A model generated the notes under the pieces. That model made no database searches, had not been told where the DNA came from, and saw nothing but the letters and a program-made list of their open reading frames with translations. From Patescibacteria group bacterium (GTDB lineage Bacteria > Patescibacteriota > Minisyncoccia > Phycocordibacterales > UBA9973), in contig JAZKIP010000001.1 of NCBI GenBank assembly GCA_040384805.1, positions 133,864-197,863 on the forward strand: a DNA stretch of 64,000 nt, given 5' to 3'. Of this stretch, positions 33,803 through 60,733 are shown piece by piece. Position 1 is the first letter of the stretch; each line of letters opens with the position of its first letter. A program made the position numbers and the translations under genes.

Positions 33803-33835
33803 ATAAAGAGTATTTAATTATTAAATTAAAAAAAC

Positions 33836-34213: not shown

Positions 34214-34232
34214 TAAATTAAACTGTTAAAGT

Positions 34233-34490: not shown

Positions 34491-34850
34491 ATGAAACAAG
34501 CGATTTTAATTATTGCAATTGCAAGCCTTCTGTCTTGTACTTCTGACATCCCCCAAACCACCCCGGAACCTGGGGCTGTTAGCAGCATAAAGCTGCAATT
34601 CGAAGACAATACCGTCGACTATTCGACGGATGAAAGTTTTCGTAAATTTAAGGTCGGCGATAAACTGACCGTTCAGCGGTCAAGTGATGGATATTCATCC
34701 TCTGAATGGGAAGTGTCCTCATCTCCCATTGTAAGGGATACTGTCACATGGGCTCCTTACTTAAAAACCTTCCCAGAAGCAAGCATATACGCGGGGCATA
34801 CATACCGGGAAGAGAGGGCCTACCGTAAGGCCGTAATAGTTAAAAATTAA
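34491..34850 (+). CDS. Putative lipoprotein
   Basis: MKQAILIIAIASLLSCTSD lipobox-type signal. It is preceded by a ~110-nt leader homologous to the one before ORF 36297. Confidence 0.45.
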   Translation: MKQAILIIAIASLLSCTSDIPQTTPEPGAVSSIKLQFEDNTVDYSTDESFRKFKVGDKLTVQRSSDGYSSSEWEVSSSPIVRDTVTWAPYLKTFPEASIYAGHTYREERAYRKAVIVKN

Positions 34851-34911
34851 GACCTGGGTCTAAACTCAAGGCTGATACTTACGTATCAGCCTTTTTTATT
34901 TCTTTAAAATA

Positions 34912-34943
34912 CCATTCGAACATCCTCCTGTATTCGAAGCTAC
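34912..34943 (+). repeat. Hairpin-repeat family copy (diverged), preceded by a terminator hairpin at 34869..34898
   Basis: CCATTCGAACATCCTCCTGTATTCGAAGCTA. Confidence 0.4.
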
Positions 34944-44390: not shown

Positions 44391-44457
44391 TAACCAAAAC
44401 AGCATCCTTTAATACTCCTGAGCATTATGCGCAGGAGTATTTTACAATGAAAGTCTC

Positions 44458-44567
44458 ATTTGTCGATAATATCTATTCACTGTTATAATGACCCAATCAT
44501 GGATTCAAAGTTTATTCACCTCCACACTCATTCCCACTATTCCCTCCTCGACGGATTGTCTAAAATC
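44458..44567 (+). repeat. Left 110-bp direct repeat: a copy of the dnaE promoter plus the first ~27 codons
   Basis: 108/110 nt identical to 57504..57613, including the TTGTCG/TTGTCA -35 box, a 17-nt spacer, the TTATAAT -10 box, and ATGGATTCAAAGTTTATTCACCTCCACACTCATTCCCACTATTCCCTCCTCGACGGATTGTC. Confidence 0.9.
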
Positions 44568-44654
44568 ATCATTAATAAAATTTATCGCCTTTGTACCCAG
44601 AGAAAATTATTGCCTAACTATCGAAAATCCAGCTTATTCTTACGATGCATATGA
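44460..44654 (+). pseudogene. Truncated duplicate of the DnaE N-terminus (first ~35 aa, then unrelated tail)
   Basis: MSIISIHCYNDPIMDSKFIHLHTHSHYSLLDGLSKI is identical to the start of ORF 57506. It diverges after the repeat boundary. Confidence 0.8.
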
Positions 44655-44776
44655 GTAAGGCGATTTAGATTGTCATAGGAAAATGAAGTAACATTTTGCC
44701 CGCTAACTGATAGCCAATACACATTCATAAATATGAACAAAATAAACCGCATGACAATCTTTTTTACTATTCCAAT

Positions 44777-45229
44777 CTAATAACTTTTAAAATACTCAAA
44801 AGTCATTTTCTTTATTATTTCAGCGATTGTGAGGGCATTCCTAATAAATTTTATCCTGGAATTTATTTCTCCATCGGAATCCCAGTTGTCTTTGTTTCCC
44901 CATATGTGCCTCAAAAGCTTCTCTTTGAATTCATCCAATTGGAGACTCTTTGCATCCTTTTTAAACTGCAATTTGATTTTAATTCTCTGATTAAGAAAAA
45001 TATCAAATCCGAAAAATGGGCCAACAGTTCCTACTTTATGGATTGCTATTATACTAAATGAGTCTCCTTTGCTATCCACAATTTTAGCATTCTCAAAATA
45101 TAATTTCCCCTTTTTTGTACATACTGTTAAATCACTGTCATTTCTAAAAAATGCTATAACTTCTTTGCCAAAACAAATTATAGGATATTCAAAACTATTT
45201 TTAGTCGTTTCGTCCATAATTGTTACCAA
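44777..45229 (-). CDS. Hypothetical protein, between the left boundary repeat and the first 37-bp array repeat
   Basis: 150-aa ORF only. Confidence 0.35.
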   Translation of the reverse strand: MVTIMDETTKNSFEYPIICFGKEVIAFFRNDSDLTVCTKKGKLYFENAKIVDSKGDSFSIIAIHKVGTVGPFFGFDIFLNQRIKIKLQFKKDAKSLQLDEFKEKLLRHIWGNKDNWDSDGEINSRIKFIRNALTIAEIIKKMTFEYFKSY

Positions 45230-45297
45230 TACTTTTAATTATATATAGTCCAGTTTTTAAGTTGCACAACCTCCTTTTAACGACACTAGTATGCAAG

Positions 45298-45911
45298 TTG
45301 TAATACAAGTAATGTTCGTTTCTTGATGACGATTTTCTTATTTTATATAAGCTGAATTTTCTTTGAATAGTAATGGCTTTTGTTATATTTCTTAGATAGT
45401 AGATTGCCCCATTTCCCCATCTTTTTTTATTACTTTCAGCGTCAAAACCAATTATCCCAAACTTTACGTTGTAATCCACGGAGACATAATAGTAGTAATA
45501 ATAGTATTCATGATTGCCAAGGTCTTTCAATTCAAATGTTAGCCTGAAATCTGTTTCGGAATCTCCTTCTTTCTTTTGCGATTTTAAGTATTCCTTAATT
45601 GCTTCAATTTTCTTTCTGCTCTTGTTTTTAGACAAATTTTTGTGATTGTAAATATCACAGACATATCTTGCTGAAACAACCTCTTGTTTATTTTTTTCTT
45701 CTAGAATATTGCGATTTGCGTGATTATTGATATTCGTCGCGATAGTACTATAATTTGCAGGGTTTTTTAATTTTCCTTGTGGCGGGTTATCCTTAAAATA
45801 GTCACGTAACAAGCGAACAACTTCTTTTAAATCTGTAGTGGAATACAGTTCCGTTTTCCGAACGCGGGCTGTAAGTTTCTTATATATATTAGGATCAATG
45901 GTTTTTTTCAT
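45298..45911 (-). pseudogene. Spacer-1 gene fragment, C-terminally truncated at the repeat junction
   Basis: ORF 45201..45911 reads through repeat 1. The tail translated from the repeat, LHTSVVKRRLCN, recurs in every ORF that crosses a repeat on the minus strand. Confidence 0.4.
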
Positions 45912-46827
45912 GAGTTCAAAATAGAAAATTGTGAAGATTTTTGTGAACTTTTTTTAAAAAATGTGTATGTCTCCGTTAACATGATCTATAGAAATGGTGG
46001 GAATTTTACCGCGATGGTAGCTAATAAAAAAACCCACCAGTTTTTTACTAGTGGGCCATCATCGGAAGGAACAGTATTCCGAGATGTAGCCTATAAGGTT
46101 GTTCAAAGCAACCAAGTGGCGTTCCTTTATTATACTGATTGTCAGTATAATAGCAACGTTATCTCTGTCTGTTCCAAATTAAACATGTAAAATCTATGTT
46201 TTATGGAACAGTATACATCCTTAAGATTCTCTGAATTAAGCGACGCAATTCTTGCCGGCTACAAGCATGATTTTGTAATACAAGTTAGTGGTACGCTTAA
46301 ATGCCTCTCAAAACCGGGTAAAGTTTATTCTCCTGATGAGGTTGATATAAGAGTCATTACTTCTTTGAAGAAGAAGGCTAGCCTTCTTCTTATTACTACC
46401 AATGATGGATTATACAAGGGAACGTCGGTGGATTATTGGGAATATTAAGTAAGGTCTAAATTTATTATCCTAAATAAGATTAGTTGCACAACCTCCTTTT
46501 AACGACACTAGTATGCAAGGTAATAATTTTTTTTATTTATAACATCATTGAGACATTGTAGAACAGTCTATTATTCTTCTCTTCACATTACGGAGAGCCA
46601 TCAGTAAAAAAAACCATCAACATTTGTTGATGGTTCACCCGTTCGGTAACAGCTTACCGAGAGATTATTTTACATAGTGGTGACACACTACGTAACGTAA
46701 TGATAATCTATCACTTATAGGTTATTTGTCAACTCTTTGTAGCCTGTTCCGACCATATCTGTAAAAAATATGGTTTATGGAACAATATAAGTTGCACAAC
46801 CTCCTTTTAACGACACTAGTATGCAAG

Positions 46828-47517
46828 GCTTATGATCCAGGAAATAAGTTCTCAATCCCATTTCAGTATTCAGCCTGTGGAATAGGAGTTGACACAAGCA
46901 AAGTCAAAAACTTCAAGAAAAGCTGGTCACTCCTCTTTGATGAAAAATATAAGGGCAAAATCAGTATGTTAGATGATATTCGTTATGGAATGGTTCCGGC
47001 ATTGAAGACCCTTGGCTATTCGCTAAACACAACTAACGAAACCGAATTAAGTCACGTTAGAGATTTATTGTTAAGGCAAAAATCTTTGGTCCGAGCCTAT
47101 ACTAGCGATACATATATTGATCTTCTCAAGTCAGGGGAAGTCTGGATAGCGTATGGATACACTGGGGATATTTATCAGGCGATAAAGGAAAATTCTAATA
47201 TTGTTTATTTTATTCCAGAAGAAGGGTCTGCGCTTGCAGTAGAAAGCATGTGCATCCTGAAAGGAGCTAAAAATAAAAAAACGGCCGAACAATTTATGAA
47301 TTATATTCTGGAACCTCAAGTAGATGCGGATATAGTAAATCACACTCAATATGCAACTCCAAATGATTCGGCTAAACAGTTTATTAACCCCAAAATTCTG
47401 AATGATGAGAATATTTTTCCAGGAAATTCAGTTTTTCTGAAAAGTGAGTATATACGAGATCTTGGTAAAGCAAATCTGCTATATGATAAACTATGGACCG
47501 AAATAAAGACCAAATAA
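46828..47517 (+). pseudogene. Spacer-3: N-terminally truncated PotD/PotF-like polyamine ABC substrate-binding protein fragment
   Basis: C-terminal ~230 aa of a spermidine/putrescine-binding protein fold (…GEVWIAYGYTGDIYQA…NYILEPQVDADIVNHTQYATPN…). It starts directly at the repeat junction with no start codon. Confidence 0.5.
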
Positions 47518-47610
47518 CAGTTTTTCCTTTGACAATTCAATAAACTTGCATCGTATTAGTTGGCGTAGTAAAATCTAATATTATTAGAGATTATAGGACT
47601 TCATGCCAAG

Positions 47611-48495
47611 ATGAATGAAAAATATAAGCTGAGAAATATCGAGCCCGGAATTTATCGCCAGCGAGGTATAGCCGAATTTCGCATTCTTGAATCCTCGATT
47701 TCAAAACGGGTATTTATAAAATACCTCAAGGAACTTTCCCGAAATTTAGGAATGCAACCACATCCAGAATTGCCAGAGCCAGTTATTACTTCAGCTTCTG
47801 GCTATACTTTACAAAAGCATGATGGCCTTGAAGGATTTCTATTCTGGCTAGAATCAGGACTTCACGCTTATTACTGGAAGCGTCCACAGATAATAACTGT
47901 GGACATGCATTCTTGTAAACCACTTATTGAAGAAGCTGTTGAAAATACAAGTAGAAGTAACTTTAGTATTGTTGAGTACAATTATGTAGACCTAGTTTTA
48001 AAAGAAAAGAAAGACAGTCAAAAAGTAAGGACCAGAATATATTCAATATCCCGAAAAGGCCTAATCGCTTCAAAACGCATCAAAAAAGATGAGTATATTT
48101 CTGGGTATTATGGTGAAGTTCACGAAATAAGAAGGACAAAGAAATTTTATAGAGCAGAATTTAAGAATGCAGTTCAATTCGCCGAACATAAATGGCGGGA
48201 ACCTGTCTTAAATAGTCTTGCACAAAACATTAACCATGCGTGTGTACCAAACTGCGGCATTAAAGGTATGTTTGATATAGTTGCCATTAGAAATATTGAA
48301 ATTGGTGAAGAATTATTGTTAGATTATGCAATGACAGAGGATTCCGACTTGAATATCCCTAAAGAAAAATGTTTATGTGGCACAAAAAAGTGCCGTGGAA
48401 AAGCAGTTCCTTATAAAAAGCTACCAAAAGAAGTCAAAGTATTATATAATAATTACATCTCCGAATGGTTAAAAAATAAGTATTATATCAACTAA
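47611..48495 (+). CDS. SET-domain protein (lysine methyltransferase-like), complete gene inside spacer 3
   Basis: NHACVPNC (SET NHxCxPN motif), EELLLDY (ELxxDY motif), and the post-SET Cys cluster CLCGTKKCRG. Confidence 0.65.
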   Translation: MNEKYKLRNIEPGIYRQRGIAEFRILESSISKRVFIKYLKELSRNLGMQPHPELPEPVITSASGYTLQKHDGLEGFLFWLESGLHAYYWKRPQIITVDMHSCKPLIEEAVENTSRSNFSIVEYNYVDLVLKEKKDSQKVRTRIYSISRKGLIASKRIKKDEYISGYYGEVHEIRRTKKFYRAEFKNAVQFAEHKWREPVLNSLAQNINHACVPNCGIKGMFDIVAIRNIEIGEELLLDYAMTEDSDLNIPKEKCLCGTKKCRGKAVPYKKLPKEVKVLYNNYISEWLKNKYYIN

Positions 48496-48796
48496 CATTA
48501 GCCATATCAGTTCCCCTGCATATAATATAGTTTGAAAAAACGCTAAAGTTTTGAAGGCTCAAGCAGCTGTATATTCGCGGGTTATTAAATCTGCAAAATC
48601 GTGAGGTTTAAGCAATACCATGTTAAAATTGAATGGACAAAGCTTTCCCTGATGAAATTTATAGCGTTTGTTCCTATCAAGAACTATTGCTTATTGATAC
48701 AAGATCCAACTCATATATTTGGAGTAATTGCAGGCACAGAGATTATGGAATTTTTAACCGTTGCACAACCTCCTTTTAACGACACTAGTATGCAAG

Positions 48797-49227
48797 TGAT
48801 CCACGCAACGGCCCATGAAAGTCGCTTGAATAGGACATCGATCTTGGAAATGTCAGAACATGGTGCAGACCCATACAGTATCGAAGAATTGATCGCAGAA
48901 ATGGGAGCCTCATACCTCTGCTATCATGCCGGCATTCTTCCGACCCCAATAGGAGACTATTTCGCCTACCTGAACGGCTGGCTCTGGATAAGCTTCGGCA
49001 AGATACTCACCTTGTTGTTACAGCAAGCGTATATGCGCAGCGGGCGGTTGACTACATTCTGGGGTATAAGGAGGCAACCAGCGAGAAAAAAGAGGAAGCG
49101 GAAGTGCCCGAAGCCATGGATGGGGAATAGGAGACATCTATACACAAAGCCCGGACTTTTCCGGGCTTTTTATAATTACTATTTCTTTTTTACTTCGTTA
49201 TATTTCAAACAAAAATTACAAGTATGA
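48797..49227 (+). pseudogene. Spacer-4: 3' fragment of an ArdC-like antirestriction/zincin gene, starting mid-gene at the repeat junction
   Basis: Begins ...IHATAHESRLNRTSILEMSEHGADPYSIEELIAEMGASYLCYHAGI (the HExxH...RLNR ArdC C-terminal metallopeptidase motif). The first 258 nt are 100% identical to 51706..51963 in spacer 6, then the two copies diverge. A terminator hairpin AAGCCCGGACTTTTCCGGGCTTTTT follows. Confidence 0.55.
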
Positions 49228-49256
49228 AAACAAGTATTCTGATTAACAATTTCATT

Positions 49257-49502
49257 CTATTCTTTATCTCTTATTTCTTGTCTTGCTCTTGAAAGATTTT
49301 CAAAGTAGTTCCCCTCAAAAGTTTCAGACACAATTTTCTCTAATGATGATTCAATATCAAAAAGAATTCTTTCTTCTGCTTGATCTTCAAATAGCAACGG
49401 GTGTTCTTTCTGATTGAATTTGGTTAACCATTCGAGCAGAACGAGAGCTTCATTACTACTTAGTTTTAGGAATATGTTTTTATTGTCTTTTATAACTTCC
49501 AT
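49257..49502 (-). CDS. Hypothetical small protein inside spacer 4
   Basis: 81-aa ORF. Confidence 0.35.
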   Translation of the reverse strand: MEVIKDNKNIFLKLSSNEALVLLEWLTKFNQKEHPLLFEDQAEERILFDIESSLEKIVSETFEGNYFENLSRARQEIRDKE

Positions 49503-49738
49503 AATTTATAGACCTCCGTGTTCAAGAACATTTTTTAATTGTACGGGATTAAGTTTCCAGCCGCTAATAAATTGTCCCGAAGGACTAGAGATAACATTAA
49601 GACCAGTATTTGGATTGAGATAGTGTATTACTGATTGACCTCTATATGTTCCATTAATAGCTTGAACACCTGCGGAATTGTTGCACAACCTCCTTTTAAC
49701 GACACTAGTATGCAAGAAATGGCGAGCAAATAAAAATT

Positions 49739-50380
49739 TTGGGCGTAGTGGCTCTTCAAAGAAATAGATCAATAATTAAAAAAATAGATAGAGTAATATC
49801 TACCATTTGGGACATAGCCAAGAAAAATTCTACTCCTAATGAAAATATAGTTATCCTGGAGATTTCAGAAGTTACCGGGATATCTCCAAAAGAAGTTAGT
49901 CTTTGTTTGCACCTCATTTCTGATTATGGTCAGTATGTTACGGGGAGTATAAGCGAGCAGAACACAAGGCTCTACACCGCAATTCAGATAAACGAAGATA
50001 TAAATGTATACTATAGGTATAGCGAATTTCCTGAGGCAAGTTCTCTCCTTGCATTGGATGAAATTAAGAATCAGACGCAACCCCAGGAGTATTTTAAGGA
50101 TGATGAAATTCTGACAATCGGTTGGCAATTGGATAGATTAAGGGAAGAATTTAAAAACGGCATATGTGTATTACAAACCGGACAGGAAATCATCTGGACG
50201 GATAATCAAGAAGATATCGCAGAAATGAAAATTCAGCTTTCCAAATTATCGAAGAAAAACTGGTTTCAACTCTTTATTGGTAAATTATTTTCAAAAGGCA
50301 TTGATAAGCTTTTCTTTGAACCTCTGTTTGAAAAGATTAAGAATTTTGTTGATCCGGCAATAAGTGGATTACTGAATTGA
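49739..50380 (+). CDS. Hypothetical protein inside spacer 5
   Basis: 213-aa ORF starting 23 nt after repeat 5. Confidence 0.4.
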   Translation: MGVVALQRNRSIIKKIDRVISTIWDIAKKNSTPNENIVILEISEVTGISPKEVSLCLHLISDYGQYVTGSISEQNTRLYTAIQINEDINVYYRYSEFPEASSLLALDEIKNQTQPQEYFKDDEILTIGWQLDRLREEFKNGICVLQTGQEIIWTDNQEDIAEMKIQLSKLSKKNWFQLFIGKLFSKGIDKLFFEPLFEKIKNFVDPAISGLLN

Positions 50381-50544
50381 GGCTGCGCTTAATGCGATCC
50401 GTTACAATTTGCTGTTTTCCGTCCAATGATAAACTGTGTTTTCAGTGGCTTCGACAACTTTACATAATTACTTATGCCGGTTCTTCTGCTTCCTGTCATT
50501 TCTTCCCCGCTGCTGAAGAGAATTTATGTAGGGATTAGCAATCT

Positions 50545-50919
50545 TTATTCATCTGAGAATTCTTCAAGATCGAGTATGGCAAGCCCTTTGATTCCGTCTG
50601 GTGTCCTGATCCAGTATACGACAGAACTCGAATCAAAACACACTTCTAGATTGGAAATACATGCGTGTATTCGATAGCTGGTGGCAAGATCAGAGGAGCA
50701 ACGGAGTAAGCCATCTCTAAACTCAAACTTGACGGTATAACCATCCGCTAGGGCTTTTATGACTACCGGTGAGCATAGTTCTAATTCTGAAAAAGCTTTC
50801 ATTAAGAAAGGGTAATTGACTTCCTTCATGCTAGGCTGTGATTTCTCCGGATTATTCCGACCGGAATCTGAAGAGGCCGGCATTTCATACTGGCATTGAA
50901 TAGTAGATTTCTGTTCCAT
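50545..50919 (-). CDS. Hypothetical protein inside spacer 5
   Basis: 124-aa ORF. Confidence 0.35.
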   Translation of the reverse strand: MEQKSTIQCQYEMPASSDSGRNNPEKSQPSMKEVNYPFLMKAFSELELCSPVVIKALADGYTVKFEFRDGLLRCSSDLATSYRIHACISNLEVCFDSSSVVYWIRTPDGIKGLAILDLEEFSDE

Positions 50920-51264
50920 AACATTATTTTTTAGAGTTTGATAATGTCGGAACAGCCTGCGGAGAGGTTGACAGATCAGTCTATAAATGACAGAATGTCA
51001 TTATGTTACGTAGTGGTGGTACACTATGTAAAATAATCTCTCGGTATGCTGTTACCGAAGGGGTGAACCATCAACAAAATGTTGGTGGTTTTTTTCTTTG
51101 CTAATAGTCTATCCCAATAAAAGAAGAAACAAATGGCTGTAATCCACTGTCTTAATGCTGTTATAAATAAAAAAAATTATTACATTACTGTATTAAAAGC
51201 TGCGTTAATGGGAAACCGCTTAAAACCGTTGCACAACCTCCTTTTAACGACACTAGTATGCAAG

Positions 51265-52045
51265 CAAAAACCTCTATCTCACCTGGGACCAAATCAAGGA
51301 GGTCGGCGGATCGGTAAACCGGGGGCAGAAAGGGCATGTCGTTGCCTACTGGAAAATGATCTCGAAAGAACAAACCCGAATGGTACACGAGAAAAATGAA
51401 CTTACTCCGCTTCTCCGGTACTACAAAGTGTTTAACATTTCGCAGTGCAGGGACCTTCCCGATAACCTACTTACTCGGGCGGAGACGTTCCCACAGGGTA
51501 TTGACGCTGGCAGTTCTTCCAAAAAGAAAAATTCGATCTTCTGCGAGGCGATCTACAACAACATGCCTCTGCCCCCAGAGATTAAGTATGAATCCCAGAA
51601 GGCTCTCTATGACCCCGCTCAGGATTACGTCAGCATGCTCAGGAAAAAGAGCTATAAAGAGCCTTCAGGCTACTATGCAGCCCTGTTCCATCAGTTGATC
51701 CACGCAACGGCCCATGAAAGTCGCTTGAATAGGACATCGATCTTGGAAATGTCAGAACATGGTGCAGACCCATACAGTATCGAAGAATTGATCGCAGAAA
51801 TGGGAGCCTCATACCTCTGCTATCATGCCGGCATTCTTCCGACCCCAATAGGAGACTATTTCGCCTACCTGAACGGCTGGCTCTGGATAAGCTTCGGCAA
51901 GATACTCACCTTGTTGTTACAGCAAGCGTATATGCGCAGCGGGCGGTTGACTTTATTTTGGGATATAAAGAGGCAACCAGTAAGAAAAAAGAGGAACGGG
52001 AAGGGTCCGCAGCCATCGAAGGGGAATAACAAATATTTAACATAA
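51265..52045 (+). pseudogene. Spacer-6: N-terminally truncated ArdC-like antirestriction gene (longer fragment than in spacer 4)
   Basis: The frame is open from the repeat junction: KNLYLTWDQIKEVGGSVNRGQKGHVVAYWK (ArdC N-terminal ssDNA-binding domain), then ...LFHQLIHATAHESRLNR.... No start codon. A terminator hairpin AAGCCCGGATACCGGGCTTT follows. Confidence 0.55.
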
Positions 52046-52288
52046 TAAGCCCGGATACCGGGCTTTCTTTAATTAAGTGTTAACTATTAGCCATTATAAC
52101 TTGTTATTAAAAATCTCACTAGTTTTTTGAAATTACCTTAGAAAACCTCTAATTTACTACCTTTGCCATCCATTAAAGGAAATAAACATACAGTAAGATT
52201 ATCCTTAATGTGTATATAGGTCGTTTACAATAAGTTAACAAGTGGTACAATAATGGTAAGCTTTTTGTCACCTTAAATTTATTACATT

Positions 52289-52537
52289 ATGAAAAAGTAT
52301 TTCATACCAACGTTTAGACTTCCTTTCTCTTGGAAAGAGAAATTATTGGATAAGGTTGTTTATCAGCCTTATAAGTATTTTAATGGGGTTTATAAGGAAA
52401 CCGGCATTCTTGTCACAGAGAACCAACTAAATGAGATTGTAGAAATATTGTCTCTCAAATTGGTGTCCCAAAAGATGTCCGCTGAACCTGACATTATTGA
52501 AGTAACCGTCAGAAAATTGGACACGGTAGCAGCCTAG
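52289..52537 (+). CDS. Hypothetical small protein inside spacer 6
   Basis: 82-aa ORF. Confidence 0.3.
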   Translation: MKKYFIPTFRLPFSWKEKLLDKVVYQPYKYFNGVYKETGILVTENQLNEIVEILSLKLVSQKMSAEPDIIEVTVRKLDTVAA

Positions 52538-52571
52538 ACGAATACCATATTTAGGTCCCTTAGGGGACCTT

Positions 52572-53542
52572 TTATTTTATCAGCTTATCGGAGTAAAAAA
52601 TATGATTCATAAATTCACTTATTAACTTAAAATCTGAATTCTTTAATCCGTCAATTAACAGCTTATATATATTCTTTCCTGTAAGGTTTATTCTATGGAT
52701 TACGTTGTTTTTTATGTAAGCAATTTCTTGTAAGTGGTAATCCTCCTTGGTTAAATCATAAAATATCCGGTCTCTATCTTTATTTAGCGCTATAGCTGGT
52801 CCTGAAATTTCGATGTTTGGTTTTTCAGAAAGTATTTTAAGAACTTCCGTAAGACACTGGGCAAAATCAAAAGTTCTGTTGTATAGCTTGTTCAATAACT
52901 CTAACTGATAAAACCAAATTAAATAGCGATTAACTCGCCTAATCTGGATTAATTTGAGATTTCCCTGAAGTGGGTTAAATGAAAACGTAGTTTCAAGTGC
53001 AGTATGAATTGAACTAATGGAATAGTCAATTAATTTACGCGAATCCTTATTTAAAGATTCACTAGCATAAAAAACGATGTCAGTGATAATAGCAAACGCA
53101 TCCGCTTGGTAGTCTGCTTCTTCTACCACTTTCGGAAAATTTCCAATCCCTTGTACCGTTCGCCGATCTAAATTGTGGAACTTATGCAGTGCTTCGTGAA
53201 GCACATAAAGTCGACAAGCTTGATAAAATTTATCATAGTTTAATGGATGATTACCTGTAAGAAATCTGTGATAAATGGATGCGAAGAAATTCACTTTAAT
53301 TTTCCACTGTTTACTGATATCCAAAAAATCTATATCTTGGTCCTCATCTACAAGCCCTTCTACGATGGTATTAGAAAAAAATTGGCTCGTATCATCCAAC
53401 TCAAAATAATTAGAATATACCTCCGCCGGAAATTTCCAATAACTACTATGACAGAATATATCTTCGGGATGAATTTGATATCCGCTTAAAAGGGTTTTAT
53501 ACCACAGCTTCTTATTAAAATCCTGGTTTTTAATAAATTTCT
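52572..53542 (-). pseudogene. Spacer-6: HExxH-containing gene (HEALHKFH), N-terminally truncated at the repeat 7 junction
   Basis: The ORF reaches the repeat with no ATG; the ORF track uses a GTG inside the repeat. Possible ImmA/IrrE-like metallopeptidase, low confidence. Confidence 0.35.
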
Positions 53543-53868
53543 GTTGCACAACCTCCTTTTAACGACACTAGTATGCAAGGATTTTTGAATTGCATTCAAA
53601 TAGCCAAGAAGGTTTTGTATCAGTAGCTTCCTATAGGCTTCTACGAGTAAAACACTATTTCCTCCAGCCGGTAAAGCTGTGTAATATCTTGATTCTAACA
53701 TTCCCCGGTGTAATTAGTTCTGCGACTGATGTGTCTCCATTGTTTTTGTGATAAACAGAATAGGTGCAAAATCAATTTCTACCTTTTCAATTTCGAGCAA
53801 TGTTTGTTCTGTTTGAATATTGTCGTTCATTTTATTATGGGTTGAGTTGTTAATCGATGGCGCCAAAA

Positions 53869-54789
53869 TCAGAAACATTGACGTCCATAGTATTTTTCCC
53901 TTCGCAAAAAAAAATTTTTAAGTTGGTAATATCTTTTGTCTATTAATGACCTGCTTTGACCAGCCCCCGAAATATCATTTTTGGTGACTTTAAACTCATT
54001 ATAAAATGCATCTTTAAATGATTTCGAATTTAAGTCTTCTATTTCTTTGGCTGGATAGTATATCATTACGCATTTGCCTGTTTTAGCATTACCTATATCG
54101 CTGATATGAAGAAAAAGGCCAGCCGCAAACCCAACATGGCCAACATATGAATCAATATCACGTCCACAATTCATAACGTGGTAGGTGGGCTCATTGTTTA
54201 CCTCACTCTGCAGCTGTAGTACGAAGTTAGTACCTTTTATAACAACAGTGCCTTTCCCCCAATTTTTGCCATGGTAGTATTGAACTGTATCACCTATCTC
54301 GTTTTGCCATTTAATGAGAAAGGCAATCCTCCCCAAAATTGCTTCTCCCTCGTTCTCTAAGTTTTCTCTAAACCGGCCGTCCTTGTCATAGAAGCATTCC
54401 CAATAACCGTCGAGTTTTTGTAATTGTAGGATAGAGGATGTCGGAGTGGGTACTTGGCCCCCAGACGAAAAGAATTCACCCCTGTCACATCCATACGCAT
54501 AACGATACATCGTATTTATGAATTTCTTTCGGAAGGTCCGTACACCGTGCTTAGAATGATGAAAAAGAACTGCCAAAGGTTTGTTGGAACGAATGTTAAT
54601 ATTTTTTAGCGCTTTTCCTTTATTGATGGCTTCGTATAATGGATCGTAATTTCGCAAATTGGAGTTTAATATCTTATCAGGATTTTCGATTGCATTTCCT
54701 GTCGTGCTTTTATATTTTTCAATTACTGCCTTTCTAAGTTCGCTTAACTCGTGGTGCTCAAGTGTAATATTCCCAATTTCTGCTGTCAT
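53869..54789 (-). CDS. Hypothetical protein inside spacer 7
   Basis: 306-aa ORF. Confidence 0.4.
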   Translation of the reverse strand: MTAEIGNITLEHHELSELRKAVIEKYKSTTGNAIENPDKILNSNLRNYDPLYEAINKGKALKNINIRSNKPLAVLFHHSKHGVRTFRKKFINTMYRYAYGCDRGEFFSSGGQVPTPTSSILQLQKLDGYWECFYDKDGRFRENLENEGEAILGRIAFLIKWQNEIGDTVQYYHGKNWGKGTVVIKGTNFVLQLQSEVNNEPTYHVMNCGRDIDSYVGHVGFAAGLFLHISDIGNAKTGKCVMIYYPAKEIEDLNSKSFKDAFYNEFKVTKNDISGAGQSRSLIDKRYYQLKNFFLRREKYYGRQCF

Positions 54790-56115
54790 TTTTTACCCAG
54801 TTAAGTAAAGTAAATCAGAATTAAGCCCAAAAATACCATTAAATGCACACAATTAGGTAAAAAACTATAGTTTACTCTATGTAGGTGAAATACAATGGTT
54901 AAAATATTTTATTTTTTTAACTTATTTACCTAAATTTGGAATAGGGATACAGGTTTTCTGGCTCTTAAAAAAAGAGCCTAACGGTCTAACCACCGTTAAG
55001 CCCTGTAATAGCGGTAGTCTCGTTGACAATTATACCGCCTAGATAACAGTCTAACATGTTTTTCTAGTATAAATAACGTTAGACATATAGTATAGGTTTT
55101 TGTCAACTTGATTAGACCGCTAAGAAGCGATCCGATCAGGTTTTTTTATTTATATACACAAAATTAGAAATATACAATATGGTGGCATGGCTACATAAAA
55201 AATTGGGCAGACATCCCCCATAAAGGAAGAATCTGCCCACATGAAATATACCTGCTTTCGCAGACGTACAATTCAACTAGTCATTGCAAATGTATATAAA
55301 GCGGAAGCAGGTTAAAAAATCTTTTTTAACCTGTAATACGCTTTACAATGATAAGCAACATTAACAAGTGTCCTTTCCATGGGCACACCTCCGTTACATC
55401 AGCATCGAGTACAGACGAATTAGTCAGCCTTAAATCGTTGCACAACCTCCTTTTAACGACACTAGTATGCAAGTATTCATTAAGGGGCAGCGCTTCACTA
55501 CGAGGTGTCTGCCCTTTTTGTGTATATATGCGCCATAATATTATATTTGAACGAAAAATAAACAGTCTCAAATAAAAAAAGCCAGACTCGACAATTTATC
55601 TATTGCGGAGAGCTGGCTAAACCGTGTAGTGCTGCTGCTAGACGAACTTGACTTTTTAAGGCATTGAATGATAATATATTAGCAGCGGTTTAGCTTAAAA
55701 TTGATACCGCACAATTCACCGCTCAGGCCACGAACCTGAGCGGTTTTTATTTTTGTCTAAGGATATTGAAATAGGGACGGATAGTAAAGATAAGGGTAAA
55801 CATTTATTCGTTGCACAACCTCCTTTTAACGACACTAGTATGCAAGTATTTGTTTAGTTTAAATAAAAAACCTGACCAGATCGCTATTCGTGCGGTCTAA
55901 TCAGGTTGACAAAAAACCTATAATGTTGCCTAACGTTATTTATACTAGAAAAACATGTTAGACTGTTATCTAGGCGGTATAATTGTCAGCCAGACTACCG
56001 CTAATAGGGTTACGACGGTCTGATCACCGCCGGCCCTATTTTTTTATACTATGTGTATATGATTAAATTTGTTGCACAACCTCCTTTTAACGACACTAGT
56101 ATGCAAGTGCTTGTA

Positions 56116-56451
56116 TTATATATCTTTTTTAGGTTTTTTTCCAATTTTCCCCGAAAGTTGAATGATTTCAAAGGGTGGCATAGCTGCCGCTTTTTCTTTG
56201 GAAAGAATATCAAGATTAATAAAGCAAGATTGGCATAAACTGCTAATAAATACCTTTTCAGTTTTCTTGATGAACAATCCGCTCAAAAGGGTCTGGACTG
56301 TGCGCTTCTCCTTTTGATATAGCGGACCTATGTATAGATTTCTCATAATTGGTTTAAGTCCATAATTCTTACATACGATAACAGCTTTATTCCTATGTCG
56401 CCAATTATTGCTTTCCCAACTGATAATTATAGTCGAAGTGATGTTATTCAT
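56116..56451 (-). CDS. cas2: Cas2-like protein (divergent)
   Basis: ~111 aa. N-terminal IIISWESNNWRHRNKAVIVCKNYGLK aligns with the Cas2 pattern YDI...RR.Kv.k.L..yG (YD replaced by WE). Overlaps cas1 by 8 nt, as is typical for cas1-cas2 operons. Confidence 0.5.
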   Translation of the reverse strand: MNNITSTIIISWESNNWRHRNKAVIVCKNYGLKPIMRNLYIGPLYQKEKRTVQTLLSGLFIKKTEKVFISSLCQSCFINLDILSKEKAAAMPPFEIIQLSGKIGKKPKKDI

Positions 56452-57457
56452 TTTTTAAATTAAAAAGCTCTGTAGCATTGAATGCTTTTAGTGTCTTTTC
56501 TTTTCCTTGAAAGAATCGCGCAAGCGATCGCACTTGATCTTCCATGATCTGCTTGAGCGTATACTGTTTGCCTTTCCATATCACTTTTTCCTCCCAACGA
56601 TTTAAAATGGCTTCCGTGATGATAGCTATTCCTTCGGGCGAAAGTTTATATTTACCCTTGCCGATTGATTCAAACAATGACCGTTTACTCATTTTCTTTT
56701 CAATTATGAGCTGAAAGAGCACAGAGTCAACCACCGGCACCCGAAATTCTTCCACCAAATCGCAGACAAGCGCCGGTTTGCCGTACCGTTCTGTATGACA
56801 AAGACCGAAATAAGGATCAAGACCTACATAGAGGCATAATCGTTCCATTTCAGTATACAAAAAACCGTAACCATAATTAATAATATTGTTAAATTTATCC
56901 CCTCGTTTTCTGTCACGACCAGCGAAACGAATCAGTTTCCGAAGAGCAAAGAAATACGTGTTAGCAATTTGTCCTTCAATCCCCATGAGCTGATCTCGAT
57001 TCTTAGGATGATTCGGAATTGTATCTACTGTTTTAAGTATCGCTTCGCATTGTAAGATCTCTGTAGAAAAATCCTTTTTATATTTATAACCCAAATATCG
57101 CAAATGCAATATTTGATTAGTGCATTTACCTTTTATAAAAATCTTGGCAATGCTAAAAGATTCAGGAGATGTGGAAACTTCAAGCTGAGCGCGACGCAAA
57201 CTTGCAATTCCTTTTGGGGCACTTGAAAAGATTCTGCCGATAGGTATAGCGCGAAAATCCATATATACAATATCAACTTCGTGTTTAAGGGCGAGCTCAA
57301 CAGCAGCAGTAGTAAGAGAAGCGGGCCGGAGAATACGTATCTTTTCAACTCGTATCGCCGGATATTCCTTCTTCTCCTTCATCTTTGGGAACGTGAGAAC
57401 AAAACGTTCTCCACTTGCACGAATACTTGTACCATATTCATTGACGATTATATCCAT
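56444..57457 (-). CDS. cas1: CRISPR-associated endonuclease Cas1
   Basis: Hallmark C-terminal motifs NNIINYGYGFLYTEMERLCLYVGLDPYFGLCHTERYGKPALVCDLVEEFRVPVVDSVLFQLI (Cas1 NYGY...GLDP..G.LH...R.sL..DL.EeFRp..vD). N-terminal beta-rich domain. 337 aa. Confidence 0.9.
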   Translation of the reverse strand: MDIIVNEYGTSIRASGERFVLTFPKMKEKKEYPAIRVEKIRILRPASLTTAAVELALKHEVDIVYMDFRAIPIGRIFSSAPKGIASLRRAQLEVSTSPESFSIAKIFIKGKCTNQILHLRYLGYKYKKDFSTEILQCEAILKTVDTIPNHPKNRDQLMGIEGQIANTYFFALRKLIRFAGRDRKRGDKFNNIINYGYGFLYTEMERLCLYVGLDPYFGLCHTERYGKPALVCDLVEEFRVPVVDSVLFQLIIEKKMSKRSLFESIGKGKYKLSPEGIAIITEAILNRWEEKVIWKGKQYTLKQIMEDQVRSLARFFQGKEKTLKAFNATELFNLKNE

Positions 57458-57503
57458 ATATTTTAGGGATAAATAATAAACACATTATATTACAGAACGT
57501 CCA

Positions 57504-57613
57504 ATTTGTCAATAATATCTATTCACTGTTATAATGACCCAATCATGGATTCAAAGTTTATTCACCTCCACACTCATTCCCACTATTCCCTCCTCGACGG
57601 ATTGTCCAAAATC
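57504..57613 (+). repeat. Right 110-bp direct repeat: the native dnaE promoter and 5' coding region
   Basis: See 44458..44567. -35 TTGTCA and -10 TTATAAT lie upstream of the dnaE ATG at 57545. Confidence 0.9.
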
Positions 57614-60600
57614 GAAGACATGGTCAGGATCGTCAAAGAGCACGGCATGGGTGCACTTGCCGTCACCGATCACGGCAATATGTACGGCGCGATCGAACTC
57701 TACAAAGAATGCAAGAAACAAGGCATAAAACCGATCATCGGTGTTGAAGCGTATATCGCTGAACGCGGGCGTAAGGATAAGGAGCCGGGTGTCGATAACA
57801 AACGCTATCACCTGACACTTCTTGCCAAGAATCTTCAAGGGTACAAGAATCTCATGCGCCTTGTCACGCTTGCCAATCTTGAAGGATATTACTACAAGCC
57901 TCGCATGGACAAAGAGATCCTCAGGCAATATCATGAGGGTATTATATGCCTCTCGGGCTGCATGGGCAGTCAATTGTCTCAAGCAGTTCTTTCCGGCAAC
58001 ACTGAACGCCAGGAAATGCTCATCAAGGAGCATCAGAGTATATTTGGCGCTGAGAATTACTTCCTCGAGCTACACTCGCATCCCCATATCGAAGGAGATA
58101 AAAAGCTCCGCGACGGAATTATTGCTCTCGGACGGAAATTCAACATACCGCTCGTTGCAGCACAGGACTCCCACTACCCGTGCAAAGACGATCACGAGGC
58201 CCATCATACACTTCTTCAGGTCAATACCGGATCCGAAGGCAAGGACACCGGCAAATTCGAATTTTCTGAAGACGACTTTTCTCTTATCGATGAAAAAACC
58301 GCTCTTGAATATTTTGCAGATATTCCTGAAGCAGTCCCCAATACGCGCCTTGTGGCGGATCTTTGTGAAAACTATGATCTTGAGCTCGGCAAAGCATACT
58401 TCCCTGATTTTCCGATTCCGGAAGGGACAAATGCCGATGATATTCTTCGCGATTTGGCATACAAGGGATTCGAGTTCAGAGAATTGCCTCAGTCTCAGGA
58501 ATATACAGAGCGTCTTGAATACGAACTCGGCATTATCAAGCAAAAAGGATACCCAACATACTTTCTCGTAGTGGGAGATCTTCTTCGGTATGCCCGTGAG
58601 CACGGGATACTCACCAATATCCGAGGATCTGTCGCAGGATCGCTTGCGACCTATCTTTTAGGCATCACCAATGTCGATCCCCTCGACTATAAACTCCCGT
58701 TCGAACGATTCCTTAACCCTGAGCGTCCATCTCTCCCCGATATTGATATGGACTTTGCCGACAACCGCCGCGATGAGATTATCGCCTATGCAAAGCAGAA
58801 GTATGGCGAAGACAAGGTCGCCCAGATCGGAACGTTTGGTACCATGCTTGCTAAAGGTTCTGTTCGTGATGTCGCACGGGCGCTCGGATACCCTTATGCA
58901 GTTGGAGACCGAATCTCAACCATGATTCCGCTTGGCTCCCAAGGAATGCCGATGACGATCGAACACGCTTTTGAGCTTGTACCCGAACTTGCTGCAGCGT
59001 ATAAGAGCGAACCCGATACCAAGAAAATCATTGACCTTGCAAAGAAGATGGAAGGCTGCGTCCGCCATATCTCGGTCCATGCCGCAGGCGTCGTCATCGC
59101 TCCACGACCGCTCTATGAATTCTCGCCGATCCAGTTTGATCCGAAAGGAGGAAATATGATCACCCAATATGACATGTACAATATCGAAGATGCAGGACTT
59201 CCGAAATTCGACTTTCTCGGGATCCGCAACCTGGCAATTCTCGCCGATGCGGTAAAGCTCGTGAAAGAGCTTCATAATGTCGACATCGATCTTGATCGCA
59301 TTCCCCTTGAAGATAGGAAAACATTCGAAATGCTTGCCCGAGGAGAAACTATGGGCCTTTTCCAGCTCAACGGCTCTGGCATGACTCATTATCTTAAGGA
59401 GCTCCGGGCAACGACTATCCACGATATCAACGCCATGGTAGCCCTCTACCGCCCCGGACCGATCCAGTTCATTCCAATGTACATCGAGCGCAAGCATAAT
59501 CCTCGATTGATAAAATACTTGGATCCCGCGCTTGAGCCAATCCTCAAGCAGACATATGGAGTCCTTGTCTATCAGGATGATCTGCTTCTCATCGCGATAG
59601 AGATCGCCGGATACAGCTGGGGCGAAGCTGATAAGTTTCGAAAGGCGGTCGGAAAGAAGATCCCGAAAGAAATGGCCGAACAGAAGGATCGCTTCATCAA
59701 TGGCTGTGTCGAGCATAGCGGTTGGCCGCTTAAAAAGGCAACGGAACTCTGGAATCAGATCGAGCCGTTTGCCGCGTACGGTTTCAACAAGGCTCATTCG
59801 GCAAGCTACGGGCGGGTTGCATATCAGACGGCATATCTGAAGGCAAACTTCCCTGTCGAATACATGACGGCGATTATGACTGCCGAATCAGGAGACATCG
59901 AGAAGGTCGCCGAAATTGTGCACGAATGCCAGAAAATGAGCATCAACGTCCTTCCTCCGAACATTAATGAAAGCTTCGGCGGATTTACAGTGATAGTGGG
60001 GTCCGATAAGCCCGATGGACGGACGATCAGATTCGGTTTGCATACAATCAAGAATCTGGGCATAGACATTGCTGATTCGATTATCGAAGAACGCAAAAGA
60101 GGCGGCCCATTTAAATCATTGGCTGATTTCTTCGAGCGAATCAATCATAAGAATTTAAACAAAAAATCCGTTGAAGCGCTTGCCAAATCGGGCGCCATGG
60201 ATGATTTCGGCGATCGCAACATGATCATTGGCAATCTTGAAACTCTTTTAGCATTCAACAAAGAATTCCGTACCGTAGCGACGCAGGACTCTCTGTTCGG
60301 CTCTATCGGAGGCATCCAGACGACTCTTTCGCTCTCTCCTCAAGCGGAAACAACGATGAATGAAAAACTTGTATGGGAAAAGGATCTCCTAGGACTTTAT
60401 ATCTCAGGACATCCGCTTGATGCATACCGGGAGAAAATTGAGAAATTCGGAACACTCATCAAGAAGATAAAGGTAGAAACGCAGGTAGGCATGCCGGTAA
60501 CGGTCGCCTGCATCATCGACGATGTCCGCGTCATTACAACGAAAAAAGGTGATCGCATGGCATTTATAAAGGTTTCAGACCATAGCGGATCGATCGACGG

Positions 60601-60733
60601 CGTTCTTTTCAGCAAGCTTTTCGAAGGCCACAAGGATATTCTCATAAACGACACCATCATCGCCCTTCAAGCGAAAGTCACTGAGCGCAACGGCGACAAA
60701 AGCTTAATGATCGAAAGCCTAAAGAAAATATAA
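57545..60733 (+). CDS. dnaE: DNA polymerase III alpha subunit. Start placed at MDSKFIHLH.
   Basis: PHP domain (HLHTHSHYSLLDG), the polymerase core (GSVAGSLATYLLGIT...PDIDMDF), HhH and OB regions. 1063 aa from 57545. Confidence 0.95.
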   Translation: MDSKFIHLHTHSHYSLLDGLSKIEDMVRIVKEHGMGALAVTDHGNMYGAIELYKECKKQGIKPIIGVEAYIAERGRKDKEPGVDNKRYHLTLLAKNLQGYKNLMRLVTLANLEGYYYKPRMDKEILRQYHEGIICLSGCMGSQLSQAVLSGNTERQEMLIKEHQSIFGAENYFLELHSHPHIEGDKKLRDGIIALGRKFNIPLVAAQDSHYPCKDDHEAHHTLLQVNTGSEGKDTGKFEFSEDDFSLIDEKTALEYFADIPEAVPNTRLVADLCENYDLELGKAYFPDFPIPEGTNADDILRDLAYKGFEFRELPQSQEYTERLEYELGIIKQKGYPTYFLVVGDLLRYAREHGILTNIRGSVAGSLATYLLGITNVDPLDYKLPFERFLNPERPSLPDIDMDFADNRRDEIIAYAKQKYGEDKVAQIGTFGTMLAKGSVRDVARALGYPYAVGDRISTMIPLGSQGMPMTIEHAFELVPELAAAYKSEPDTKKIIDLAKKMEGCVRHISVHAAGVVIAPRPLYEFSPIQFDPKGGNMITQYDMYNIEDAGLPKFDFLGIRNLAILADAVKLVKELHNVDIDLDRIPLEDRKTFEMLARGETMGLFQLNGSGMTHYLKELRATTIHDINAMVALYRPGPIQFIPMYIERKHNPRLIKYLDPALEPILKQTYGVLVYQDDLLLIAIEIAGYSWGEADKFRKAVGKKIPKEMAEQKDRFINGCVEHSGWPLKKATELWNQIEPFAAYGFNKAHSASYGRVAYQTAYLKANFPVEYMTAIMTAESGDIEKVAEIVHECQKMSINVLPPNINESFGGFTVIVGSDKPDGRTIRFGLHTIKNLGIDIADSIIEERKRGGPFKSLADFFERINHKNLNKKSVEALAKSGAMDDFGDRNMIIGNLETLLAFNKEFRTVATQDSLFGSIGGIQTTLSLSPQAETTMNEKLVWEKDLLGLYISGHPLDAYREKIEKFGTLIKKIKVETQVGMPVTVACIIDDVRVITTKKGDRMAFIKVSDHSGSIDGVLFSKLFEGHKDILINDTIIALQAKVTERNGDKSLMIESLKKI

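Follow-up and report, generated by a model that had tools for sequence, protein, structure and literature searches.

Introduction

To our knowledge, all characterised Cas1-Cas2 integrases of CRISPR systems measure their substrate and store spacers of ~30–40 bp. This spacer-length ruler is central to both the understanding and the engineering of CRISPR memory. Here we analyse a locus from a Patescibacteria group bacterium (GenBank assembly GCA_040384805.1, contig JAZKIP010000001.1, positions 133,864–197,863 of the forward strand; the whole 64,000-nt stretch is referred to below as the window, and positions are those of the window), in which genes for Cas1 and Cas2 adjoin an array of identical 37-bp repeats separated by spacers of up to 2278 nt. 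The same layout recurs across one Cas1 clade and suggests a so far undescribed capture of long DNA by a CRISPR integrase. Full-text literature searching retrieved no report of kilobase CRISPR spacers and no published description of such arrays. Kilobase-spacer Cas1-Cas2 arrays appear to be new; stand-alone adaptation modules are already known.

The locus shares with canonical CRISPR-Cas systems a homologous I-B-like Cas1 and Cas2, direct and identical 37-nt repeats, foreign inserts, a conserved leader-repeat junction, and, in three arrays, degenerate distal repeats. In contrast, canonical spacers are 25–50 nt and near-constant in length, whereas the spacers described here extend from 140 nt to ~12 kb across the clade and vary widely within arrays (224–2278 nt in the window; about 50-fold within a single array). 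The locus further differs from canonical systems in having no nearby genes for effectors or CRISPR RNA processing, in having no motif resembling a protospacer adjacent motif (PAM) that we could find, in carrying genes, promoters, and terminators within its spacers, and in having no separate leader, since the first repeat abuts the cas2 stop codon.

Stand-alone adaptation modules resemble the locus in comprising cas1-cas2 without an effector module; we know of them only with ordinary arrays or with no array. They are present in numerous genomes (PMC6452270). Casposons resemble it in having a Cas1-family integrase, kilobase inserted DNA, and a duplicated target, and the module described here shows signs of mobility as well. 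The casposon target-site duplication is single and 14–15 bp long, whereas here there are serial insertions at one site with a 37-bp duplication, and the inserted DNA is unrelated foreign DNA rather than the element itself. Further differences from casposons are the presence of Cas2, the absence of a family B polymerase gene from the island, and the absence of detectable terminal inverted repeats at the island ends. Known casposons are without Cas2, and a Cas2-bearing configuration is 'expected to appear' (PMC6452270). Integrons and clusters of attC sites lacking integron-integrases (CALINs) are, like this locus, chromosomal arrays of 0.2–4-kb units with short repeats, some whole genes, and a content that differs between relatives; however, no tyrosine recombinase (IntI) was found here, the repeats are identical rather than variable imperfect-palindrome attC sites, and the units cut genes and lie in both orientations, unlike the whole, mostly promoterless, co-oriented genes of integrons. 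A separate array in the same window, at 30.8–35 kb, which consists of whole small genes and imperfect palindromes, contrasts with the Cas1-Cas2 array in the same way. Two defining features of CRISPR-Cas, short regular spacers and a nearby effector, are lacking from the locus, as are the defining features of casposons and integrons.

Results

An effector-less cas1-cas2 module adjoins an array with kilobase spacers

Our scan of the window identifies ten copies of the 37-mer GTTGCACAACCTCCTTTTAACGACACTAGTATGCAAG (CTTGCATACTAGTGTCGTTAAAAGGAGGTTGTGCAAC when read in the direction of the cas genes), all on one strand between 45261 and 56107 and all without a mismatch. An earlier note on this DNA, made from the letters alone, had reported these copies, together with spacers of 224–2278 bp, adjacent cas1 and cas2-like genes, and an 8-nt gap without a leader between cas2 and the nearest repeat; our measurements and family searches agree with it on each of these points (Table 1). 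The 37-mer is confined to the array: allowing up to three mismatches, there are zero copies in the rest of the window, and the number expected from dinucleotide shuffles of the window is 0. A MITE-like dispersed repeat (miniature inverted-repeat transposable element) was considered and rejected, as there is no 37-mer outside the array in the 64 kb and the flanks of the repeats are unrelated to each other. No degenerate copy was found past the distal repeat 10, the best score being below the shuffle mean, and the segment that follows is probably a truncated oldest spacer. The repeat can fold into a hairpin in cas orientation, with covariation that is not above that of shuffled controls (91/500 and 126/500). 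The G + C content of the array and cas genes is 33–39%, compared to 42–49% in the flanks.

The contig SRR26324625_3425228 of Logan, an independent assembly of run SRR26324625, is identical to window positions 46799–48785: it starts within repeat 8, crosses the entire spacer P7, and ends within repeat 7. Repeat collapse is not expected, because sequencing reads are longer than the 37-nt repeat. Given the junctions in the Logan contig and the occurrence of the same layout in ~20 independent assemblies, misassembly of the array, an alternative raised in the earlier note, is unlikely.

The two genes next to the array were assigned as cas1 by Pfam and PADLOC and as a divergent cas2 by PADLOC and by structure-profile matches. 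The window Cas1 has 100% identity to an NCBI protein labelled 'Patescibacteria group bacterium', in agreement with a Patescibacteria (CPR) origin of the MAG. In particular, the cas1 profile matches solved Cas1 structures, with 4n06 as the best match (3e-48), and the profile of the Cas1 clade matches PDB chain 6opm ('CRISPR-associated endonuclease Cas1'), which we take to be a casposase, at 1e-35. Cas1 residues E161, H221, D233, and E236 are conserved in the long-spacer clade and the ordinary clade alike, and their spacing presumably is that of the metal-binding, catalytic-type site of the Cas1 family. Of the 18 Cas1 residues that are specific to the long-spacer clade, 12 lie within residues 10–79, that is, within the N-terminal domain, which we understand to touch Cas2 and to bracket the prespacer duplex in solved Cas1-Cas2 complexes; residues 10–79 are a lead on a possibly altered length ruler. 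For the 111-aa cas2 open reading frame (ORF), a Pfam search gave no match, and a profile of 17 orthologues matches solved Cas2 structures (such as 3exc, 4qr0, and 7mi4_E) at E = 3e-5 to 1e-3. The usual β1 Asp is replaced in the window protein (SWES) and in the orthologues, which have WET, WQT, or WRT at this position; a CxxC motif is conserved in the orthologue alignment. The Cas2 variant is rare, with 55 clusters at E ≤ 1e-3 among 1.84e9 representatives.

The −35 region of the cas1 promoter, TTATTGACAAAT, is conserved in an alignment with two of the related loci described below (L048 and L002). The cas2 stop codon and the first repeat are separated by 8 nt (56108–56115), and the bases immediately before the first repeat are mostly GCT (30 nt compared in 22 loci). 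A −10-like TATAAT at the end of cas2 (56115–56144, minus strand) ends 7 nt ahead of the first repeat, and a −10-like box is present at the equivalent position in L048 and in L002 (TATAAG in the latter). Judged by its position, the element could start transcription of the array at the repeat.

Searches of the island ORFs with Pfam, PADLOC, and PHROGs detect no effector, Cas6, Cas4, or recombinase family, which upholds the absence of an effector cas gene from the island that the earlier note had claimed. There are likewise no effector genes in the rest of the window and none within 10 kb of cas1 in three related loci (L048, L050, and L129), the flanks of which are housekeeping and contain no recombinase.

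The long-spacer layout is conserved across one Cas1 clade

A Cas1 alignment, used to scan for related loci, retrieved 46 from genomes and 78 from metagenomes. In essentially every locus with a Cas1 at least 39% identical to that of the window, a homologous 37-nt repeat is located 335–385 nt past the end of cas1 (~28 loci), with the first copy 4–22 nt beyond the cas2 stop codon and with the consensus CCTGCA-N7-GTCGCAAAAAGGA-N3-TGTGCAAC. The number of repeats ranges from 1 to 10, and every such locus with at least two repeats has spacers of at least 140 nt. Specifically, the 54 spacers measured in related arrays are 140–7672 nt long (median ~1.45 kb), none of them being of ordinary size (20–100 nt), and two further spacers are 8.3 kb and ~12 kb. 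The layout is shared by ~20 other loci from different projects, some on contigs named like long-read assemblies and one on OY969557.1, a complete 876-kb chromosome with 8 repeats. The taxon labels of related loci comprise Patescibacteria lineages, 'candidate division FCPU426', an Aenigmatarchaeota metagenome-assembled genome (MAG; L032, DPANN), and Parcubacteria (L033). In IMG/VR viral contigs, neither the Cas1 clade nor the repeat core is present.

Where Cas1 is at most 38% identical (Methanospirillum, Methanocalculus, and others), the arrays are normal, with 35–50-nt spacers, and their 37-nt repeats align over the full length with the long-spacer repeats (CTTGCATA...TGCAAC; CTTGCA...TGCAAC). 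A neighbour-joining tree of Cas1 places every long-spacer locus in a single clade and suggests a derivation of this clade from I-B-type systems. Ordinary spacers thus accompany only these more distant Cas1 proteins, and close homologues are not tied to ordinary arrays; it is such a tie that the earlier note had named as speaking against its proposal. An expansion of a normal array by recombination, one of the note's alternatives, is unsupported, because no normal-sized spacer occurs in any related array.

The spacers appear to be arbitrary fragments of foreign DNA

The gene content of the spacers in the window indicates arbitrary fragments of foreign DNA, and their edges fall within genes. Family searches recover the ArdC homologues in two spacers, the PotD fragment, and the complete SET-domain gene that had been noted previously, and the ardC, PotD, and peptidase-effector genes are truncated exactly at repeat junctions, as had likewise been described. 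In P4, homology to ardC extends from the first spacer base, which corresponds to nt 195 of the ardC gene of a Bacteroidota locus, L135 (83% nucleotide identity); in P6, it extends from the first spacer base, which corresponds to nt 626 of ardC (87% nucleotide identity to L135). The two ardC fragments (MPTase-PolyVal) are 92% identical to each other. In P7, the PotD-like fragment comprises residues 128–355 of a 355-aa protein and begins at the first spacer base; its best relatives are 67–71% identical, the top-scoring named one being from Ferruginibacter (Bacteroidota). The peptidase-like spacer gene of the earlier note is present in P4, and its description is refined: the ORF 52572–53549 (minus strand) matches the PADLOC profile Effector Peptidase of the CBASS type (cyclic oligonucleotide-based antiphage signalling system) at positions 301–590 of 598, so that only the C-terminal half of the effector is present, cut by the repeat at profile position 301. 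In no case does the same gene continue across both sides of a repeat in the window.

Several window spacers are related to each other. Parts of both P5 and P9 are homologous to P8, and the small gene that is cut in P8 is whole in both; in particular, positions 50912–51186 of P5 are 79% identical, in inverted orientation, to the whole of P8, and P9 holds the whole 81-aa 'MEQY' gene (46203–46448). P5 holds, in addition, a 124-aa ORF (50545–50919, minus strand). Seven of the nine window spacers each have a segment that is homologous, in either orientation, to part of another spacer, which suggests, from the pattern of sequence sharing, repeated sampling of few related elements. Such intra-array homology was not seen in 9 other arrays tested.

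Across arrays, an open frame of at least 100 codons is cut at 42 of 96 spacer edges (~44%; 48 spacers of at least 300 nt from 23 arrays). Long spacer ORFs run along the cas strand in 62 cases and opposite to it in 38, both orientations occurring, and a strong orientation bias of captured genes was rejected on these counts. Restriction-fragment-like spacer ends were also considered; the window termini, judged by eye, give no support to this idea. Chromosomal-type DNA is captured as well, as exemplified by PotD in the window and by a GntR/glyoxalase/methyltransferase operon in another array (L013).

The closest full-length ArdC (85% amino acid identity) is encoded by L135, on contig JAWVHH010000607.1 of the Bacteroidota MAG GCA_040384045.1, a contig (L135/L136) that, like the window, was assembled from run SRR26324625. 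Besides two large serine recombinases and an Endonuclease_NS gene, the L135/L136 element, in a Bacteroidota bin, carries a cluster of metabolic genes; the large serine recombinases alongside place the L135 ardC gene on a mobile element. The homology of P4 and P6 to L135 stops just past the ardC terminator, and the donor sequence upstream of both cuts is replaced by the repeat. Both captured fragments switch frame relative to the Bacteroidota ardC, at window positions 48984 and 51883 (L135 ~nt 7410), and because the change is the same in both, their donors shared the difference and were close relatives. With identities of only 83–87%, the spacers are not chimeric joins with the co-occurring Bacteroidota contig. 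The window spacers appear to be largely Bacteroidota-type mobile-element and chromosomal DNA, and the Patescibacterium may live alongside the Bacteroidota organism or have it as a host. No nucleotide match of spacer DNA was found in PLSDB plasmids or in INPHARED phages, a PHROGs search of 10 spacer ORFs gave no match, and the spacer proteins are all singletons at 90% clustering, so that the collection holds no near-identical donor.

Turnover, polarity, and mobility of the module

Two close relatives define the turnover of the locus. In L002 (Cas1 71% identical), synteny with the window extends to both sides: dnaE and cas1 are divergent, and an RNase HII homologue is encoded beyond the array. 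No spacer is common to the two loci. The same flanks without a shared spacer show that the spacers did not arise from native genes by insertion of repeats, a possibility that the earlier note had proposed to check. The module of L048 (Cas1 72% identical), which has four perfect repeats and a degenerate one at the distal end, lies between lepB and pth; in the window, these two genes are neighbours with a 75-nt gap, which represents the empty site for the L048 insertion. In L048, L032, and L002, degenerate repeats are found solely at the end far from cas, and the first repeat is the precise end point of several contigs. The distal degenerate repeats, the GCT junction, and the contig ends at the first repeat would fit the polarity of ordinary CRISPR arrays; no pair of strains with a polarised gain of units was found.

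A 1504-nt unit comprising ~100 nt of upstream sequence, cas1, cas2, and the repeat is present in at least four copies, with 99.7–99.9% identity and different flanks, in the MAG MFD05512.bin.1.167; its left end, TGTCCACGACGGGG, is sharp, and its right end coincides with that of the repeat. Loci with the unit are L003, L008, L026, and L029, and also L004 and L022. The near-identical copies suggest that the unit itself may move or be copied. On the contig shared by L026 and L029, a fragment of cas1 starting from nt 284, followed by cas2, lies between two repeats (L029, 9969–11123), ~12 kb downstream of a complete cas1-cas2-repeat; here the array would appear to have captured self-derived DNA. In L048, a 10-nt direct repeat, ATGTTGTGTG (9898–9907 and 17702–17711), flanks the entire cas1-cas2-array insertion; it directly follows the degenerate terminal repeat, is similar to the repeat's 3′ end, GTTGTGCGAC, and may represent the duplication of a repeat-like target site. 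Around the module in 7 other loci, no target-site duplication was detected. L129 and L131, from different samples, have an identical Cas1 and the same first spacer with different upstream genes (infC/rplT versus unrelated ORFs).

Island boundaries and remainder of the window

The island is bounded by direct repeats that the earlier note had given as 110 bp; they are in fact 119 nt long, are 96% identical to each other, and comprise the dnaE promoter and 22 codons. A target-site duplication is unlikely, because the cas1 promoter sequence is included, and was rejected as a candidate, since the repeat carries the cas1 −35 region that is shared with L048 at another site. The duplication is far younger than the divergence from the syntenic L002 and is probably a scar of island entry, outside the mechanism by which the array is built. 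In the most economical reading of these sequences, the island would have entered from a relative of lower G + C content that had it beside dnaE, as in L002, by homology-facilitated illegitimate recombination, with a crossover through homology in dnaE at one end and an illegitimate join at the opposite end; the recipient would have contributed the left copy and the donor the right copy.

Outside the island, the window carries housekeeping genes (gyrA, guaA, purA, guaB, purH, gdh, pepN, rnhB, and dnaE), and an Rfam scan of the whole window found four tRNAs and nothing else. A second cassette-like array (30821–34940) is located in a low-G + C stretch (33–38%; region 30.0–38 kb) near tRNA-Asn (29968–30040). 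It comprises six imperfect copies (66–100%) of a ~26–48-nt palindromic element, TYCGAACATCNTCCCACGTTCGRAGC, spaced 577–1393 nt apart, with one palindrome separating each small, complete gene from the next (CAAX protease, HD, GrpB, and two DUF1428), mostly on one strand. This array looks integron- or CALIN-like; no integrase for it was detected. A further low-G + C stretch (4001–6000, 33.8%), around the ORF 4369–5490 (minus strand) and beside tRNA-Glu (5505–5577), is possibly another small island.

Table 1. Window coordinates of the repeats, spacers, cas genes, and boundary elements of the long-spacer locus
Feature	Coordinates	Strand	Basis or content
Repeat 1 (cas2-proximal)	56071..56107	-	37-mer scan; homologous to repeats of 31 other loci
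Repeat 2	55810..55846	-	37-mer scan
Repeat 3	55437..55473	-	37-mer scan
Repeat 4	53543..53579	-	37-mer scan
Repeat 5	51228..51264	-	37-mer scan
Repeat 6	49680..49716	-	37-mer scan
Repeat 7	48760..48796	-	37-mer scan
Repeat 8	46791..46827	-	37-mer scan
Repeat 9	46483..46519	-	37-mer scan
Repeat 10 (distal)	45261..45297	-	37-mer scan
Spacer P1, 224 nt, non-coding	55847..56070	.	55849-56006 is an inverted 88% copy of 55006-55162 in P3
Spacer P2, 336 nt, without convincing gene	55474..55809	.	Terminator-like hairpin 55718-55744
Spacer P3, 1857 nt	53580..55436	.	Entire 306-aa ORF 53869-54789 (-), without family match
Spacer P4, 2278 nt	51265..53542	.	ardC fragment 51265-52073, then 82-aa ORF, then cut peptidase-effector ORF
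Spacer P5, 1511 nt	49717..51227	.	Open frame 49739-50380 (+) reaches spacer edge
Spacer P6, 883 nt	48797..49679	.	ardC fragment 48797-49178; 81-aa ORF 49257-49502 (-)
Spacer P7, 1932 nt	46828..48759	.	PotD-like fragment 46828-47517; whole SET-domain gene 47611-48495
Spacer P8, 271 nt	46520..46790	.	Upstream region and first 5 codons (MEQYK) of small gene, cut by repeat
Spacer P9, 1185 nt	45298..46482	.	ORF 45298-45911 (-), 3′ end lost at repeat
Trailing segment beyond repeat 10	44568..45260	.	150-aa ORF 44777-45229 (-), without family match
cas1, 337 aa, I-B-like	56444..57457	-	Pfam Cas_Cas1 E=7.8e-64; PADLOC Cas1b 1e-68
cas2, 111 aa, divergent variant	56116..56451	-	Overlaps cas1; PADLOC Cas2b 3e-7
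cas1 promoter TTGACA-17-TATAAT	57484..57512	-	12/12 match to sigma-70 consensus
Leader-equivalent: cas2 3′ end and 8-nt gap	56108..56144	-	TTGGAA-18-TATAAT, 10/12 promoter match
119-nt duplication, left copy	44449..44567	+	dnaE promoter and codons 1-22; follows terminator of native upstream gene
119-nt duplication, right copy	57495..57613	+	Continues into full-length dnaE; overlaps cas1 -35 box
dnaE	57506-60733	+	ORF as listed with TTG start; likely start ATG 57547

Discussion

The locus is best explained as a CRISPR-derived, effector-less adaptation module that encodes an I-B-like Cas1 and a divergent Cas2 and in which cas2 is followed directly by a 37-bp repeat. From an architecture that is conserved in one clade, foreign and fragmentary spacers, exact junctions, turnover between relatives, and conserved catalytic residues, all of which are observed directly, we infer that Cas1-Cas2 would be the catalyst, that insertion would occur at the proximal repeat, and that the ruler would have been lost. 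Specifically, Cas1-Cas2 would take up linear double-stranded DNA fragments of ~0.14 to >10 kb from incoming DNA; the 3′ ends of a fragment would be joined to the two borders of the cas2-proximal repeat; gap repair would duplicate the 37-bp repeat; and each event would add one long 'spacer' and one perfect repeat beside cas2. Arbitrary pieces of foreign DNA would in this way accumulate as a polar archive in the chromosome, written by an integrase that would have lost its spacer-length ruler. Integration of long DNA at the proximal repeat is proposed on account of the conserved Cas1 residues together with the clade-specific N-terminal residues, and insertion by a ruler-less Cas1-Cas2 is the probable mechanism. 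It corresponds to the natural long-insert array that the earlier note had offered as one of three readings and that the comparative evidence favours; those of the note's refuting conditions that were put to the test all came out on its side. We speculate that the minimum of ~140 nt, which is near the persistence length of DNA, fits a looping of the fragment that allows both ends to reach one repeat.

Several observations weigh against this mechanism or against its corollaries. No conserved base, and hence no PAM or end motif, is present at either end of the 54 spacers, and there is no motif beside either ardC cut site in donor-like sequence. The closest donor-like sequences are 70–87% identical, and the true protospacer is not among them. 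Terminators on the cas strand within spacers argue against a single array transcript. Captured ORFs show a weak co-orientation with the cas genes, the ORFs not being independent of each other. No strain pair that shares distal spacers and differs in proximal ones was found, so that polarity is read from degenerate distal repeats in three arrays, and the multi-copy 1.5-kb unit hints at a self-mobility that is outside the proposed model. Finally, many captured fragments are truncated genes without obvious use, which weakens the case for a role in gene banking.

As to function, we prefer a route of gene acquisition for a symbiont with a reduced genome over RNA-guided immunity. Natural competence is described for Patescibacteria (PMC10633639). 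A role in banking incoming DNA, with captured whole genes that have their own promoters, such as the SET-domain gene, being tried out, is possible and is put forward tentatively. The broader proposal, that a Cas1-Cas2 clade in ultrasmall symbionts has dropped both ruler and effector and natively writes 0.14 to >10 kb of DNA at a CRISPR repeat, has in our estimate a chance just short of even.

It could be argued that the long inserts are an immune memory, being transcribed, for example from the −10-like element, and processed to guides or antisense RNA that act with effectors encoded elsewhere or with non-Cas effectors. The segments shared in both orientations by seven of the nine window spacers, as in repeated CRISPR sampling, the mobile-element markers of the donor-like DNA (ardC by serine recombinases; a CBASS effector fragment), the TATAAT 7 nt before the first repeat, and the hairpin that the repeat can form in cas orientation are in line with this; however, covariation in the hairpin is not above controls, the intra-array homology is absent from the 9 other arrays tested, cas-strand terminators lie inside spacers, an antisense orientation bias is absent, chromosomal-type genes are captured too (PotD; the L013 operon), and there is no Cas6 and no effector within 10 kb at the loci examined (L048, L050, and L129) or in the window, so that we regard an immune role as unlikely. 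We also think it improbable that the promoter-cas1-cas2-repeat unit is a selfish, casposon-like mobile element with Cas2, of whose integrase the long-insert arrays are by-products. The 1504-nt unit does occur at least four times in one MAG with sharp ends and different flanks, but its multi-copy status hangs on the binning of that one MAG; the module does occupy different chromosomal sites in close relatives, with an empty site in the window, but most genomes have a single copy in a housekeeping context; and the 10-nt direct repeat ATGTTGTGTG does surround the whole L048 insertion, but no target-site duplication is found in 7 other loci. The repeat-bounded cas1 fragment and cas2 in L029 and the identical Cas1 in two upstream contexts (L129 and L131) would also fit such an element, whereas the lack of terminal inverted repeats and of a polymerase gene, and the absence of the module from IMG/VR viral contigs, would not.

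Two further explanations are less likely still. If another enzyme acted, either a site-specific recombinase that uses the 37-mer as an att- or attC-like site or homologous recombination, with Cas1-Cas2 merely linked, the resemblance of kilobase cassettes between repeats to integron arrays and the whole genes or operons in some cassettes would be accounted for. This is very unlikely, given that no recombinase gene is present in the island or adjoining cas1 in related loci, that the repeats are identical and of CRISPR type rather than variable imperfect palindromes, that genes are cut at ~44% of spacer edges and occur in both orientations, integron cassettes being whole, co-oriented genes, and that the repeat keeps within 4–22 nt of the stop codon of cas2 and varies together with the Cas1 lineage. 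Least credible, and hardly to be entertained, is a structure that is unreal or a decayed ordinary array, arising by metagenome misassembly through the 37-mer or by MITE-like spread into native genes: the window does come from a metagenome-assembled genome, and Logan contigs do break at repeats, but reads are longer than the repeat, a whole spacer with both junctions is recovered in an independent assembly, and the layout is present in ~20 assemblies of different projects, including the complete 876-kb chromosome. Moreover, the spacers are only 83–87% identical to the co-occurring Bacteroidota contig, no gene continues across a repeat, and no related array has a spacer of ordinary length.

If Cas1-Cas2 of this clade does insert long DNA at the cas2-proximal repeat, CRISPR adaptation machinery can serve as a general long-DNA integrase, and the module would represent a new, sequence-independent means of DNA capture and horizontal gene acquisition, that is, an integron-like function built from CRISPR parts. 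With Cas1 and Cas2, long inserts, and a duplicated target as 'repeat', it would be a living counterpart of the postulated intermediate between casposons and CRISPR, and the casposon-origin hypothesis for CRISPR would become testable. It would also be a candidate natural enzyme for the insertion of long DNA at a defined 37-bp site, or for DNA recording. The spacer-length limits of CRISPR finders would cause such arrays to be missed, and the family is therefore probably under-counted. For the organisms themselves, it would explain how genome-reduced episymbionts sample the DNA of their neighbours, which in the present case is Bacteroidota-like, with its closest relative in the same sample.

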